From Nitrospira sp. (lineage in GTDB: Bacteria; Nitrospirota; Nitrospiria; Nitrospirales; Nitrospiraceae): a stretch of 32,000 nt of DNA. Below the pieces are notes generated by a model, which ran no database searches, was not told the origin of the DNA, and was given only the letters and a program-made list of their open reading frames with translations. The stretch spans positions 2,588,036 through 2,620,035 of the forward strand of contig CP060501.1 in NCBI GenBank assembly GCA_024760545.1, read 5' to 3'. Below are positions 26,662 through 30,478 of the stretch, in pieces. Each line of letters begins with the position of its first letter. Position 1 is the first letter of the stretch. A program made the translations under genes and the position numbers.

Positions 26662-27831
26662 TTACTGGTCAGCGGGTGGAAGTGTGCCCCCTGTGAAATC
26701 GATGATCGCCTTGCGTGTGTCTTGCTGCAGTTTGATCGGATCAGCTGTCGCGCTGTCTGCACGATCGGGCCAGATGAGTGCCAGATCGCAACCTTCCTTG
26801 GCGAGCAATTCCAGCCGTGCCCGCGTGCTGTCACCGCTCGAAAAGTCAGACAACCAGGCGCGTGCCAGACCCACGTTGTGATCGGAGCCGAACTCACCGA
26901 CGAACGGCTTGGGATTCCCTGTAAAGAGCTGGCTACCCGCAATTTTCCCGGGATCAGCAGGATATCCGAGACCTGACGTAACCCAGCGAACGGTACTGTT
27001 GTCTGCATAGTAGTGGAATTGGGGTGCGGTCCCGGAGGGCAAGCGCGAAAGATCACTGTAATAACGATGACCGACCGTAGATTTGAACCCGGCCTTGTCA
27101 ATTCGCTGGACTGCGTTTTCCAAGAAGGTCTTCAATTCGTTGAACGCAACTTCGGGTACGTGCTGAACCCAGTTTCTGGGATATGAATTGGCCCCGATGT
27201 CGAGATACATCCAGACAGGTTCATTGACGATCTCCCACGCGTAAATCTGATCCTTGAACGGGATGGATGCTTGGAGCAGTTCGTCAAGCACGGTGTCCAA
27301 GAAAGTGCTCTGCTTCCCGAGGTCGCGAATGATGTCGGCGCGCCCTGCAGCACCGGTGTTCGTCCTGGGTCCAGTAGTGAAACGTTGGGCTGAACTGAAT
27401 TCGAAGGAAATCAACGAAGGGATAATCTGCATGCCTGCGTTCTTGAAACGAGTTAACATCTCAACAAAATCCCGGCGAAAGCGAGCGTCCAGTTTGGCTG
27501 GGGGCGCAAAGTTGTAATCGGGGTACCTCGAGGCAGCCGCGACACTACGCGGTGCGCCGGTCTGAACTCTGAGAAAGGGAATCGGTCTGGGTCCGTAGTT
27601 GTTGCCGTGGCCGAGCAAGAACCACCGGACGACGGACACTTTCATTCGGCTCAGATTGGCGAGATTGCGGTCGATGAAGTTGAAAAGCGGCGGCAATGGG
27701 ATATCGGCGACTCGGCCAAGGGTCTCCTTTTGGTTTCGGGCGTCCCATTCTGCGTCTGCGACCCATAGGTCAGGACCAATTTCGGATCCGAATCGGTTGT
27801 ACGAAACCGAATAGTTGAAGCCAACCCTCAT
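26662..27831 (-). CDS. GH5-like (clan GH-A, TIM-barrel) glycoside hydrolase family protein, no signal peptide seen
   Basis: IYAWEIVNEP (N-E-P acid/base motif), QFHYYADN (H-x-Y), KPFVGEFGSD (nucleophile Glu context). Start ATG 27831 (MRVGFNY) lies 13 nt after the upstream stop and is preceded by AAGGGA. Confidence 0.7.
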   Translation of the reverse strand: MRVGFNYSVSYNRFGSEIGPDLWVADAEWDARNQKETLGRVADIPLPPLFNFIDRNLANLSRMKVSVVRWFLLGHGNNYGPRPIPFLRVQTGAPRSVAAASRYPDYNFAPPAKLDARFRRDFVEMLTRFKNAGMQIIPSLISFEFSSAQRFTTGPRTNTGAAGRADIIRDLGKQSTFLDTVLDELLQASIPFKDQIYAWEIVNEPVWMYLDIGANSYPRNWVQHVPEVAFNELKTFLENAVQRIDKAGFKSTVGHRYYSDLSRLPSGTAPQFHYYADNSTVRWVTSGLGYPADPGKIAGSQLFTGNPKPFVGEFGSDHNVGLARAWLSDFSSGDSTRARLELLAKEGCDLALIWPDRADSATADPIKLQQDTRKAIIDFTGGTLPPADQ

Positions 27832-27844
27832 AGCCGTCCCTTGC

Positions 27845-30478
27845 TCAAGCCATGAGCGCAGGGGCCGTATTGAGCTGAATGTCAACGCCCTTCGAGGGTG
27901 TGTATTCGAACCATTCGGCGATCAGCGAAGAGGGAGCCCAACTCGTAATGTCCGCATCCAGACCTTCGCCGCCAGACTTGTTGTCAGCGCCAAGGGAGGA
28001 CAGCTCGTAGTCTGTGAACACCCCAGGGCATTTGTAGATCCACGCATTTCCCCAGGGATCAGCAGCAGCCAGAGAAGGGTTCGCCAAGGCGGCGAGTCCC
28101 TGGACGGTCGAAGGGTACGAGCCGTTCGCGGTTTTGTAGTCTTCAAGAGCTGAAATGATCGCTTGCATGTCCAGCCAGGATTTGCGCTGGAGTGTGGACA
28201 GGAGGGGCCGAAAATCGGAGTCTGCATTGGCTGGCGGAATCCCTGGGTAATTTGTCTTGTCGTAGGCCTGGACTTCTTGGCCGATGGTTAGATAGGGATG
28301 TCCCGGTGGAAGAATCGCGCCAAAGGCTCCCTGATCGACGAAGGCGGTGAAAGCTTGTTCAAATCCCGGTCGAATGGTCAGCACGATCCGGGCACTGCCG
28401 GCGCGGAGAAATTTCTGCCGCTCCGAATCAGGATGCTCGAGAGTGCGCACGAAATCCCAAGCGGGTGGCACATCCCAAAAGTACGGATATAGAAAGTAGA
28501 GTAGGTTCTCCCATTCGATGGCTTGCTGGAGAAACTTGACCATTTCCTGATAACGGAACATTGCCATCCAGCCGCTCGAATCAAGGCCAAGCTTGTTTCC
28601 AGTGAAGGCTAAACCTCCAGACTGAACGGGTGGTGGGAACAATGCCGTCACACTGTCAGGCATGAAGTCGAAATCTGGACCGAGGAGCCAACGCAGGGCG
28701 CCCTTCATGACTTCGATGCGCTCTTCCTGACGGAGTGTGAGCGTGTCAGGTCCTTCGATCCGTTTGCGCAGTGCATCGCGTTGGCTTGCGAGAGCCTGAA
28801 TGCTGGTGTAGTAGGCATCGCGTGCGGCGTCATGCAGGGCCTGCCAGACCCCGAAACGCCACTGATCCATCGATGCGTCCAATGGCGCAAAGTCGATGCT
28901 GAAGGTGACGGCAGCCGCGTCCACATTCTGCAGGAAGTAGACGATTTTCTGGTGGCCTGTTCGGTTGATGAGAAAACCACCAGCGCTGCTCAAGTTCTCG
29001 ATAAACGCTGCCTTGCCGTTGGTTCCGAGTCCCGGCGGTTGTCCGTAACCGAAGACGATGAAGTTGCGAGCCACCGGATCATTGTCAACGTTGCCGATCA
29101 TGGCATCCAGCCAGATGGCGGAGATCCGGTATCCATCTGGCACGTCGACCGAGAGCTCGAAGAAGTGCCAACCTTCATCATCGCCCAGCTTGCCTAAACC
29201 CTGCACGGCACCGCCGATCCGCTGATTGACAATAGGCTGTGGCGGAGGCGCAACGGAAACACCATACTGCGAGGCAAGGTTAAGATAGCTGCTTTCGTTA
29301 ATGTCGGATACCAAGAGAGGAAAACTGAACGGCGTGGAGGTCTTTGCGTCGAGGTAGGCAAGGAAGGCGTGCGATTCTCTCAGAGTAGCGCCAGGTTCGG
29401 GCACGGCGATATCATAGGTCATCCGGATCCCGTATTGGAGGAGACGAACACGCCATTTGCGCATCATGGAGTAATAGTCGATACGCATCGAATCGGTGGA
29501 GCTGGGGTTCGTAATGGTCCGGACTGAGGTATCTTCCTTTCCAACGGTCGCCTGCGTCTCAATCGTCACTTTGCGTTCTTTTCGCACGCGGGCGGCTGCC
29601 TTACTCGTGATCTCTGAGGCTTGCTTACGGCTTACCTGCTGGCTCTGGTCGTTGGAATCATTGACACCGAGCGAGGCATTCGTACTGAAGCTGACGGTAC
29701 CATACGATCCAGAAACCGTTGCCCCCAGACTGATCTGGCTCGAATGCTTCGTCTCGCTGTTGGTGGCATCAGCCAGTTCCGATTTTTCGGTCACGCCTTT
29801 TTCGCTGTAGTTCTCCAGAGAGTCGGTGACGATAGAACTGAATTCCTCGCTAGTCGTGGCCCATTCCTTGTGAACCACATTCGTGGTTTCCTGGGGAGCG
29901 AGCGGAATTGTAGCGATCAGTTCGCCGCGTTCGATGCCGGCTGGCGCCATTTCAATCCGCTCCAGATGTAGCATGCCGATCGGACTGATCTGCACCGAGT
30001 TATTGAAGGTCGTCAATGCGTTGTGCGCAATAATCACTCGCAGGTCCACAAGGCCGGAGGGCGGTGACACTGTTGCAGACTTGATCGACGGCACGACGCC
30101 GTCAGGGTTTGTGTTGACGGTTGAGACAGACTGCCGCTGAGCCGTCCTCAACGCAATGACGGCGGCCCCGAATGCCTGAATTGCAGACACTGGAACGCCG
30201 GCCAGTCTGGCAGGCTCAGGCTTGGGAGCCACACGATCCGTAGCCTGCTCGAACGCTTGCAGCACGGATAGAGGTTCGGTCGCATCGTTGGCAGAGTTAC
30301 GCATCATGTGATCGAGAGTTTGACGCACTTCGCCAGGTGCCAATTGAAGACTGTTTGCGAACATGGCTTTCTCGCCAGCGCGCCCAAGGTTTCCAACACG
30401 CGGATTCGACTGTGGAAGAGTGATGGGTGTGTAAGTAGCCTTGAGAAGAACACGATCAGAGTTCGTGATTTCCGCCAT
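27845..30478 (-). CDS. 877-aa protein of unknown family with a C-terminal T2SS GspG-like (pseudopilin globular) domain
   Basis: SD AGGAGA 5 nt upstream. The C-terminal residues ~770-847 (DMQAIISALEDYKTANGSYPSTVQGLAALA..DPWGNAWIYKCPG...YELSSLGADNKSGGEGLDADITSW) are colinear with the GspG/EpsG C-terminal domain. There is no N-terminal prepilin leader or hydrophobic helix and no signal peptide. The rest is unrecognised. Confidence 0.85.
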   Translation of the reverse strand: MAEITNSDRVLLKATYTPITLPQSNPRVGNLGRAGEKAMFANSLQLAPGEVRQTLDHMMRNSANDATEPLSVLQAFEQATDRVAPKPEPARLAGVPVSAIQAFGAAVIALRTAQRQSVSTVNTNPDGVVPSIKSATVSPPSGLVDLRVIIAHNALTTFNNSVQISPIGMLHLERIEMAPAGIERGELIATIPLAPQETTNVVHKEWATTSEEFSSIVTDSLENYSEKGVTEKSELADATNSETKHSSQISLGATVSGSYGTVSFSTNASLGVNDSNDQSQQVSRKQASEITSKAAARVRKERKVTIETQATVGKEDTSVRTITNPSSTDSMRIDYYSMMRKWRVRLLQYGIRMTYDIAVPEPGATLRESHAFLAYLDAKTSTPFSFPLLVSDINESSYLNLASQYGVSVAPPPQPIVNQRIGGAVQGLGKLGDDEGWHFFELSVDVPDGYRISAIWLDAMIGNVDNDPVARNFIVFGYGQPPGLGTNGKAAFIENLSSAGGFLINRTGHQKIVYFLQNVDAAAVTFSIDFAPLDASMDQWRFGVWQALHDAARDAYYTSIQALASQRDALRKRIEGPDTLTLRQEERIEVMKGALRWLLGPDFDFMPDSVTALFPPPVQSGGLAFTGNKLGLDSSGWMAMFRYQEMVKFLQQAIEWENLLYFLYPYFWDVPPAWDFVRTLEHPDSERQKFLRAGSARIVLTIRPGFEQAFTAFVDQGAFGAILPPGHPYLTIGQEVQAYDKTNYPGIPPANADSDFRPLLSTLQRKSWLDMQAIISALEDYKTANGSYPSTVQGLAALANPSLAAADPWGNAWIYKCPGVFTDYELSSLGADNKSGGEGLDADITSWAPSSLIAEWFEYTPSKGVDIQLNTAPALMA

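Follow-up and report, generated by a model that had tools for sequence, protein, structure and literature searches.

A mobile two-gene cassette in Nitrospira encoding a large uncharacterised carrier protein and a leaderless, predicted clan GH-A glycosidase

The two genes and the extent of the cassette

We analyzed a stretch of 32,000 nucleotides from Nitrospira sp. (GenBank assembly GCA_024760545.1, contig CP060501.1, positions 2,588,036 to 2,620,035), hereafter called the window. Its minus strand carries two adjacent open reading frames (ORFs), one for an 877-aa protein, here named the carrier, and one for a glycoside hydrolase (GH)-like protein, here named the partner. A sequence-only reading of this DNA had proposed that the two form an acquired, co-transcribed cassette. 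In the ORF list of the window, the carrier occupies positions 27845-30478 (-) and the partner positions 26662-27885 (-). We set the true partner start at the ATG at 27831, because the resulting N-terminus, MRVGFNY, fits the consensus MxVGFNYP of 90 homologues; the partner thus comprises 389 aa. With this start, the TGA stop codon of the carrier and the ATG of the partner are 13 nt apart, as previously read. The spacer holds a Shine-Dalgarno-like motif, AAGGGA, and no terminator-like site, and a gap of 9-16 nt is retained among homologous carrier/partner pairs. This tight, conserved spacing and the terminator-free spacer argue for co-transcription. Each protein is matched exactly by one from a Nitrospira sp. 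metagenome-assembled genome (MAG), in which the carrier (P0001) bears the NCBI name "type II secretion system protein GspG". A word-indexed search returned 534 homologues of the carrier and 213 of the partner, and we therefore consider both ORFs real genes. Neither protein has an N-terminal hydrophobic region, which agrees with the earlier statement that both lack a signal peptide.

Nucleotide homology to relatives runs from position 30478 or 30490 to position 26672 and thus covers exactly the two ORFs, from the carrier ATG to approximately 10 nt short of the partner stop codon. The flanks were unrelated in each of the relatives at 84%, 82%, and 61% amino acid identity. In Streptomyces, on a Tolypothrix plasmid, and on a metagenomic contig, a co-oriented gene follows the carrier after 9-90 nt, and everything else differs. 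Carrier loci often lie in mobile settings, for example a plasmid with restriction-modification, toxin-antitoxin, and integrase genes, a relaxase/IS3 context, a resolvase/IS66/DruA context, and Bacillus thuringiensis plasmids; many others have housekeeping-gene surroundings. The pair as such is kept in Streptomyces, Leptolyngbya, B. thuringiensis, and proteobacterial MAGs. Based on the differing flanks and on the restriction of homology to both ORFs, we conclude from sequence comparison that the cassette is a discrete, horizontally mobile two-gene unit, in line with the proposed acquisition.

The only part of the carrier that resembles a known family is a domain near its C-terminus. Pfam T2SSG (PF08334) matches aa 766-847 with E = 6e-18 over profile positions 13-108 of 108. 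The NCBIfam model TIGR01710 scored 56.2 bits against a cut-off of 88.85 and was covered at positions 36-134 only (of 134). The GspG/EpsG structures 3gn9, 4lw9, and 3fu1 share 36-39% identity with this region, with Foldseek TMt values of 0.63-0.70; both the globular alpha-beta fold of a pilin head and the C-terminal Gly/Asp-rich loop motif of GspG, SLGADNKSGGEGLDADITSW, are present. Ahead of aa 766-847, however, there is no prepilin leader with a cleavage site between G and F and no hydrophobic alpha1 helix, and because both are absent, the NCBI name is wrong. No gsp genes occur among the scanned genes of the window or of the relatives' neighbourhoods. An identification of the whole protein as a type II secretion pseudopilin failed, as the match covers 82 of 877 residues, the score stays below the cut-off, leader and helix are missing, and the protein does not have the expected length of ~140 aa. 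The homology to GspG thus holds at the domain level only, and aa 766-847 are a captured pseudopilin globular domain, inserted between the core and the C-terminal strand. The sequence-only reading, which recognised no enzymatic motif over the first ~770 residues of the carrier, had missed this domain. For the remaining ~790 residues, neither the sequence nor the profile found a match in Pfam, NCBIfam, PHROGs, PADLOC, or PDB entries. The absence of any full-length match to a characterised family, together with these negative searches, is also in line with the view that the pair belongs to no described system.

The AlphaFold2 model of the carrier (pLDDT, predicted local distance difference test, of 73) starts with a helical N-terminal region, followed by four very long beta-strands (aa 167-193, 198-214, 307-323, and 331-360) around a poorly modelled insert (pLDDT <50). 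After this core come a jelly-roll-like sandwich (aa 417-532), a set of long helices (534-599), a domain of alpha/beta type (634-741), the GspG head, and a long strand (851-870), in which W856, T860, and D866 are invariant and kept whatever head domain stands before. The two core motifs that had been called conserved-looking map to aa 164-213 and 331-363 and indeed lie in the best-conserved part of the carrier family. The poorly modelled insert is likewise among the best-conserved parts. Within it, aa 245-273 form a run of 29 residues without a charged side chain, and S, T, G, N, and Q make up 58% of aa 236-285 versus 31% of the whole carrier. In a ranking of the family-averaged beta-amphipathic moment along the carrier, aa 248-257 take the second and aa 262-271 the twelfth place. 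Thus, aa 245-273 carry the signature expected of a membrane-spanning beta-hairpin, which we designate as putative. Foldseek searches against the PDB gave weak matches to the Clostridium perfringens enterotoxin CPE (E = 0.011, probability 0.6), Tpp80Aa1, and Cry35Ab1 (E range 0.011-0.17), and neither the PDB nor BFVD contained a confident full-length or core fold match. CPE, Tpp80Aa1, and Cry35Ab1 are aerolysin-fold pore formers. "Beta-pore-former-like" is a moderately supported description of the modelled core. A conserved transmembrane helix was rejected: the carrier has a single borderline hydrophobic segment, aa 92-110, with a Kyte-Doolittle (KD) hydropathy of 1.9, and this hydrophobicity is not kept in the family (median 1.0).

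The AlphaFold2 model of the partner, derived from the 90-sequence alignment, is a (beta/alpha)8 barrel with a pLDDT of 95.7. Almost all of the top 50 Foldseek matches in the PDB belong to clan GH-A, the best being GH5 beta-mannanases (E ~1e-11, template modelling (TM) score ~0.55, 14% identity). The catalytic motifs NEP and GEFG, already noted in the first reading, are located at residues 203-205 and 312-315. Strands 199-203 (beta4) and 310-314 (beta7) end at N203-E204-P205 and G312-E313, which are invariant in the 90 homologues. The invariant residues R69, N203-E204, H273, Y275, and E313, together with the near-invariant W354, sit at the C-terminal ends of beta2, 4, 6, 7, and 8; in the model, R69, H273, Y275, and W354 complete the GH-A/GH5 signature. 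No Pfam or NCBIfam profile matched at E<=1, including PF00150 (Cellulase) and every other GH model. The designation "GH5-like" is thus correct by fold at the level of clan GH-A, but not for GH5 proper, given the missing PF00150 match, the TM score, and the low identity. The partner is predicted to be an active-looking retaining glycosidase of an unclassified GH-A family and, taken alone, would be a new family in a known clan.

Carrier and partner families in other genomes

An exhaustive profile search yielded at least 1,162 representatives of 50%-identity clusters in the carrier superfamily at E<=1e-30; looser thresholds inflate the count with true GspG proteins. The family spans more than 10 bacterial phyla and, judged from these matches, is very large and uncharacterised. 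Eighty genome loci with a carrier come from Actinomycetes (Streptomyces, Nocardia, Nonomuraea, Kitasatospora, Amycolatopsis, and Rhodococcus) as well as from Paenibacillus, cyanobacteria, Gemmatimonadota, Blastocatellia, Isosphaeraceae, Eremiobacterota, proteobacteria, and Nitrospirales. Only a minority of the loci (9/81) have the GspG head; an unrelated beta domain of ~92 aa takes the head position in ~70/81 loci, and some members have no insert. Some carriers possess N-terminal additions, namely GH18, PG_binding_1, and, both as weak matches, PKD-like and transthyretin-like domains; none of these extended proteins has a signal peptide.

Two further groups are related to the carrier. A distant tier with ~24% identity over aa ~143-740 occurs on replicons of B. 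thuringiensis, Sinorhizobium, and the archaeon Natronorubrum. On the Natronorubrum bangense plasmid (L090, 5366-10421), a 71-aa ORF and then a patatin-like phospholipase gene stand after a 1,147-aa relative. The carrier-plus-effector layout thus crosses the domain boundary to archaea. A sister family of ~920 aa, with more than 1,500 matches in Bacillus, Legionella, Variovorax, Sporocytophaga, and Cohnella, is commonly named "peptidoglycan-binding protein" in NCBI. It shares essentially aa 161-366 alone with the carrier (E = 7e-15), apart from a short stretch, aa 684-716, at E = 0.011, and we therefore regard aa 161-366 as the evolutionary core. Sister carriers with GH-A or other hypothetical genes downstream were seen at L095 (3248-5697), L110 (980-3817), and L177/L178. 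The L095 ORF, which matches the carrier over the aa 161-366 region only, had been considered as a "short" 645-aa carrier representing the minimal module; this was rejected, since it is a split ORF of the sister family.

Carrier and sister carrier gave no tblastn match in 50,697 phage genomes, nor did the carrier match PHROGs or, at E<=1e-3, BFVD, while the partner obtained a chance-level PHROGs match (E = 0.33). A phage structural or lysis protein was rejected on these grounds, and the proposed pair was not called into question by any phage structural match.

All-against-all clustering of the ORFs from 81 genome loci identified the downstream gene as the sole recurrent neighbour of the carrier, and this gene is polymorphic. 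The most frequent classes are PLD (12/81) and a 417-aa protein with strongly hydrophobic Gly/Ala-rich C-terminal helices, presumably membrane-anchored (12/81), followed by GH-A (8/81), a 524-aa class with a weak PT-TG match (8/81), an Rv2525c-like, that is GH25-like, glycosidase (4/81), and a Tlde1/YkuD-like class (2/81); beta-helix, amidase, and classes without a Pfam match account for the remainder. The haloarchaeal relative adds a patatin phospholipase. According to published work, PLD/Tle5 and peptidoglycan glycoside hydrolases are effector classes of type VI secretion systems, or T6SS (PMC5471719), and Tlde1 is described as a T6SS effector family in a preprint (bioRxiv 10.1101/2020.02.18.954545). 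Judged by family assignment, the enzymes of the slot are thus envelope- or lipid-directed and overlap with T6SS effector classes. The fusion of GH18 and PG_binding_1 to the N-terminus of the carrier core supports a functional link.

The second commonest partner class, of ~370-420 aa and without a Pfam match (L013, 10545-11666; L074, 10594-11712; L088, 8662-9813; and 10 more loci), combines a soluble N-terminal part with Gly/Ala-rich C-terminal helices of KD 2.0-2.4, which suggests a membrane-inserting toxin. No conserved third gene that might encode an immunity protein, a chaperone, or a regulator was found in the 81 loci, only shadow ORFs and lineage-specific synteny; the ORFs after PLD partners look spurious.

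GH-A proteins fill only ~10% of the downstream slots (8-9/81), and most GH-A relatives do not stand beside a carrier. The pairing of carrier and GH5-like hydrolase is thus not specific, contrary to what had been supposed, and strict co-occurrence was rejected from the carrier side as well as from the GH-A side. Nor is the partner class tied to the type of head, as GH-A is found with both head types. A GH-A gene follows a full-length carrier in B. thuringiensis and a sister carrier in a Saprospirales genome and six metagenome contigs. The carrier hidden Markov model was run on 26 GH-A loci from metagenomes whose upstream sequence extends over 2.7 kb or more, and it hit five, three over the full length and two over the module only, the latter being sister carriers. 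Plasmid tblastn searches for the partner found nothing, and no common gene follows GH-A in the metagenome loci. On one metagenome contig (L099, 359-4446), carrier and GH-A genes are convergent instead of in tandem. On six others (L100-L105), a GH-A clade with ~44% identity to the window partner has only ORFs of ~90 aa upstream and no carrier within 0.75-1.4 kb.

Many of the GH-A genes adjoin T6SS genes or a sister carrier. In a Dyella-like genome (L096), GH-A is clustered with genes for OmpA, for a protein with the PAAR-like domain DUF4280 (PMC5471719), for a protein of 488 aa, for a PG_binding_1 protein, and for VgrG. Five more loci have a homologue of this L096 VgrG, which is clear in three (L124, L127, and L165 are among the VgrG-bearing loci), several GH-A loci have PG_binding_1 proteins, and the upstream protein of ~490 aa recurs in 15. 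The arrangement seen in metagenomes and in one genome comprises VgrG, a ~218-aa PG_binding_1 protein, a ~490-aa OmpA/PG-binding-like protein, and then GH-A, with DUF4280 as an additional component in L096. This VgrG-linked module appears to represent an undescribed family of T6SS glycosidase effectors. In a rough neighbour-joining tree without support values, the carrier-, sister-, and T6SS-linked GH-A clades interleave. The GH-A proteins thus behave as a cargo-type effector family that is moved between delivery contexts and therefore has no signal peptide. The missing export signal, which had been called unusual for a polysaccharide hydrolase, would not be odd if the hydrolase is a cargo loaded from the cytoplasm.

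Flanking DNA and neighbouring genes in the window

The 827-nt intergenic region upstream of the carrier has a GC content of 0.479, compared with 0.559 for the cassette and 0.537 for the window. The ~800-bp AT-rich leader of the sequence-only reading is thus mildly AT-richer, but it is not conserved with relatives, as nucleotide homology ends 12 nt upstream of the carrier ATG. The region contains one sigma70-like site (30650-30623), whose frequency lies within chance expectation; promoter- and terminator-like sites are not commoner than in shuffled sequence, and no Rfam family was matched. A conserved leader or regulatory RNA was rejected on the basis of these results.

Beyond the 3' end of the cassette, positions 26368-26625 contain two peptide starts of ~14 aa, MTRKRHTEEQIVSS and MRQSKFTETQIVSI, which we take to resemble the N-termini of IS3-family OrfA proteins; the peptides are too short for confirmation. 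This insertion sequence debris and the leader had been taken to suggest an acquired module; both are local features of this Nitrospira genome and lie outside the module. A contig from another sample and sequencing run (L084) is 99.9% identical to the window and lacks positions 20371-26660 (6.3 kb). At its junction (26661), the interior of a MASE1 hybrid histidine-kinase gene directly adjoins the stop codon of GH-A, which makes the 3' edge of the cassette a site of rearrangement and of structural polymorphism in this population. The absent segment comprises the 3' part of the MASE1 kinase gene, genes for a short-chain dehydrogenase/reductase, small redox proteins, and AraC, and transposase-like stubs. 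The coordinates of the main features are listed in Table 1.

Table 1. Features of the cassette and its surroundings; positions refer to the window unless a contig is named
Feature	Position	Strand	Basis or context
Carrier gene, 877 aa	27845..30478	-	ORF call, exact NCBI match
Conserved core module, aa 161-366	29381..29998	-	AlphaFold2 strands, sister-family match
Candidate transmembrane beta-hairpin, aa 245-273, HSSQISLGATVSGSYGTVSFSTNASLGVN	29660..29746	-	Composition, amphipathic moment, conservation
GspG pseudopilin globular ("head") domain, aa 766-847	27938..28183	-	Pfam T2SSG, TIGR01710, PDB matches
Conserved C-terminal strand and tail, aa 852-877	27848..27925	-	Invariant residues, AlphaFold2 strand
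13-nt spacer with AAGGGA motif	27832..27844	-	Sequence; spacing kept in homologues
Leaderless clan GH-A (GH5-like) predicted retaining glycosidase, 389 aa, candidate effector/cargo gene	26662..27831	-	AlphaFold2, Foldseek
5' intergenic region, 827 nt, local promoter/leader sequence	30479..31305	-	GC 0.479, no conservation
Two short transposase-OrfA-like ORF starts, rearrangement junction	26368..26625	+	Context outside the module
T6SS-type GH-A module loci	L096 3434-13046; L127 708-7080; L124 210-3945; L108/L119 3794-7110

Several other genes of the window deserve mention. An apparently intact IS3-type transposase ORF (HTH_21 + rve + rve_2/3) lies at 6913-7836 (+), and no similarity to the stubs at 26368-26625 was detected. 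Upstream of the cassette, at a distance of 827 nt and in the same orientation, a PilZ-domain gene occupies 31306-31977 (-); it is present in L084/L085 as well and is not found beside the cassette in other species. A 382-aa SIR2_2-domain protein, of a type common in anti-phage systems, is encoded at 13067-14215 (-) in a patch of lower GC content (~0.49). The genes for an S1/P1 nuclease (1638-2768, +) and a patatin-like phospholipase (2804-4090, +) adjoin each other in the part of the window with the lowest GC content (0.44-0.50) and may be another acquired pair.

Interpretation and comparison with known systems

We favour the view that the cassette combines a conserved carrier with a swappable, leaderless, envelope-attacking enzyme and serves as a conflict cassette for antagonism without a secretion system, a view we hold to be about evenly poised between right and wrong. 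The core module (aa 161-366), with its long beta-hairpins and aa 245-273, would insert the carrier into a membrane, probably after oligomerisation, in the way of a beta-barrel pore former. The exchangeable head of ~100 aa, in the window carrier the pseudopilin globular domain, and the N-terminal additions (PG-binding, GH18, PKD-like, and transthyretin-like) would bind envelope structures. Membrane insertion would then open envelope polymers to the co-expressed enzyme, for which they are otherwise out of reach; here, this enzyme would be a retaining glycosidase whose target is probably a glycan of the cell wall or surface. The likeliest use would be the antagonism of other microbes, with release by a non-classical route or lysis. 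Antagonism is favoured because the cargo family is linked to T6SS and because the accessory domains are of a type that acts outside the cytoplasm.

A more far-reaching version of this proposal, which we consider doubtful, is that the carrier superfamily, including the sister family and the distant tier, forms a previously unrecognised single-protein device that delivers folded, leaderless, envelope-degrading effectors to the envelopes of competitors in monoderms, diderms, and archaea without any secretion machinery. It would draw on families resembling T6SS effectors, with GH-A common to both. Effectors would be taken from the cytoplasm and the head would set the target specificity; the pseudopilin head might dock onto the target's type II secretion system or type IV pilus structures.

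A number of points weigh against the proposed antagonism. Neither in the 81 loci nor in the metagenome GH-A loci does a conserved immunity gene follow the effector, which is unusual for interbacterial toxins. For the two leaderless proteins no export route was identified, and the N- and C-termini of the partner classes contain no shared targeting peptide. A folded TIM barrel of 43 kDa would not fit through a small beta-barrel pore. Furthermore, several partner classes have no recognisable function, and the proposal accounts neither for the self-protection of the producer nor for the release route.

Some of these points suit the main rival, a self-lysis or abortive-infection module resembling a holin plus an endolysin, which we think rather unlikely. 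On a phage or stress trigger, the carrier would perforate the cytoplasmic membrane of its own producer from inside, and the leaderless wall- or lipid-degrading enzyme would destroy the envelope, so that the cell dies before the phage matures. Such a role is consistent with the leaderless state of both proteins in monoderms, diderms, and an archaeon, with the lack of an immunity gene, and with the overlap between the enzyme classes and endolysin chemistries. Exchangeable effectors around a conserved core are typical of defence systems, some loci are found next to restriction-modification, toxin-antitoxin, and integrase genes, DruA/IS66, or relaxase/IS3, and the SIR2_2 gene is located 13 kb away in the window. 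However, PADLOC-DB v2 gave no match for the carrier, the partner, the sister and distant carriers, and five partner classes, the sole exception being a weak generic match of PLD to DrmC (E = 4e-4). Many loci are situated among housekeeping genes, and no sensor or NTPase domain was found. The fused domains (PG_binding_1, GH18, PKD-like, and the pseudopilin head) are extracytoplasmic binding types that suit action from outside, and the T6SS-linked members of the same GH-A family are used against other cells.

It is improbable that the carrier acts as an adaptor, chaperone, or co-effector and serves a secretion system whose genes lie elsewhere, such as a T6SS, a type VII secretion system, or an extracellular contractile injection system, with the cassette as an orphan effector module. 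It is common for effector modules to be orphans located far from the genes of the apparatus, and the layout of effector plus accessory protein is known from the T6SS loci, where a different protein of ~490 aa precedes GH-A. Yet the same carrier layout occurs in Actinomycetes, Bacillus/Paenibacillus, cyanobacteria, Nitrospirota, Gemmatimonadota, Acidobacteriota, and Planctomycetota, and a distant relative in a haloarchaeon; these groups have no one secretion system in common. No secretion gene recurs in the 81 neighbourhoods, and the Pfam scans revealed no PAAR, MIX, LXG, or WXG domain.

We see only a slight chance that the two proteins remodel the producer's own envelope or exopolysaccharide, as a scaffold and a glycanase in the turnover of wall, sheath, or biofilm matrix. 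PslG, a matrix hydrolase, is a weak match in the fold search with GH-A, there is a PilZ gene upstream of the cassette, and the PG-binding and GH18 fusions could serve wall turnover. This housekeeping role is difficult to reconcile with a patchy spread that fits horizontal transfer, with flanks that are never conserved, and with a slot that holds toxin classes, that is, phospholipases, Tlde1-like proteins, and PT-TG pre-toxin-like domains. In addition, the export signals expected for an extracytoplasmic task are missing, and no polysaccharide synthesis genes are linked. Finally, a GspG pseudopilin or a phage structural/lysis protein, suggested by the Pfam T2SSG and PDB matches and by weak Foldseek matches to jelly-roll capsids and phage baseplate proteins, is refuted for practical purposes by the short stretch covered (82/877 residues), the absent leader and helix, the score below the NCBIfam cut-off, the many members with another head or none, the occurrence in Streptomyces and Bacillus, and the negative phage searches (50,697 genomes, PHROGs, and BFVD at E<=1e-3).

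If the proposed antagonism holds true, thousands of "hypothetical protein" pairs would represent a new, widespread class of two-gene, protein-based antimicrobial weapons or programmed-lysis devices, spread over soil Actinomycetes, Bacillus plasmids, cyanobacteria, nitrifiers, and at least one haloarchaeal plasmid. The known systems of microbial antagonism would gain a further route of delivery, and the occurrence of T6SS-type effector families in organisms without a T6SS would be explained. The slot would be a source of new envelope-targeting enzymes, several of them without a recognisable family, and the cassette could be engineered as a small, portable unit for lysis or delivery. The analysis also corrects a recurrent misannotation in databases, either as "type II secretion system protein GspG" or as "peptidoglycan-binding protein". 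We found no description of the family or the cassette in the full-text literature searched, the coverage of which is incomplete, so that an earlier description is possible. We regard the carrier and the logic of delivery as the new elements of the cassette, with a mechanism that is proposed.

Among known systems, aerolysin-type toxins (ETX/MTX2, CPE, and Toxin_10/Tpp/Cry35) may resemble the carrier in having an elongated, long-strand sheet interrupted by an uncharged, Ser/Thr-rich amphipathic hairpin, a segment with a pLDDT <50 in the carrier. Leaving GspG aside, CPE, Tpp80Aa1, and Cry35Ab1 are the only toxin folds among the top PDB hits of the carrier (E 0.011-0.17). CPE and the Tpp/Cry35 toxins have no signal peptides and are released by lysis. 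Unlike these toxins, the carrier has no match to Aerolysin, ETX_MTX2, Toxin_10, or Clenterotox in Pfam (E<=1), and its profile retrieved only GspG from the PDB. It is 3-4 times larger, with extra jelly-roll, helical, and alpha/beta domains, and it comes with an obligate downstream enzyme in environmental bacteria and on one haloarchaeal plasmid.

Binary AB toxins (anthrax protective antigen (PA) with lethal and edema factor (LF/EF), C2, iota, and Vip1/Vip2) likewise place a membrane-inserting, receptor-binding component beside a separate enzyme. Their known B components, however, are Sec-secreted members of the PA family, with A components that act in the cytosol of eukaryotes, whereas the cassette proteins are leaderless, have no PA-family match, and involve envelope-directed enzymes that are swapped between loci (glycosidase, PLD, patatin, and L,D-transpeptidase-like). 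Phage holin-endolysin cassettes share with the pair a leaderless wall hydrolase next to a predicted membrane-breaching protein and the lack of an immunity gene. Holins are small alpha-helical transmembrane proteins, in contrast to the carrier with its 877 aa, no conserved transmembrane helix, and no occurrence in the phage genomes searched. With GH5 and clan GH-A, the partner has in common the (beta/alpha)8 barrel, the NEP acid/base after beta4, the nucleophile Glu after beta7, and the R/H/Y/W residues; it differs in the absence of a GH Pfam match at E<=1, the TM score of ~0.55 at 14% identity, and its cytoplasmic character by sequence.

Polymorphic toxins and large bacteriocins (Rhs, contact-dependent inhibition, colicins/pyocins, and LXG) have a C-terminally fused toxin and an immunity gene, while the variable part of the cassette is a separate gene, no immunity gene was seen in the 81 loci, and their trafficking domains are missing. 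The conserved delivery part, the variable toxic parts, the mobility, and the exchangeable receptor-binding modules are shared, and one partner class contains a PT-TG pre-toxin-like domain. From T6SS cargo modules (VgrG/PAAR with an adaptor and Tle/Tge/Tae/Tlde1), the cassette is set apart by the absence of VgrG, PAAR, Hcp, or any other T6SS gene among the genes scanned in the window and L084, by the lack of an adjacent immunity gene, and by the presence of the carrier in monoderms and of a distant relative in an archaeon, which lack T6SS. The two nevertheless have a similar effector repertoire, in which the GH-A family is literally shared, and in both, leaderless effectors are encoded straight after the carrying protein.

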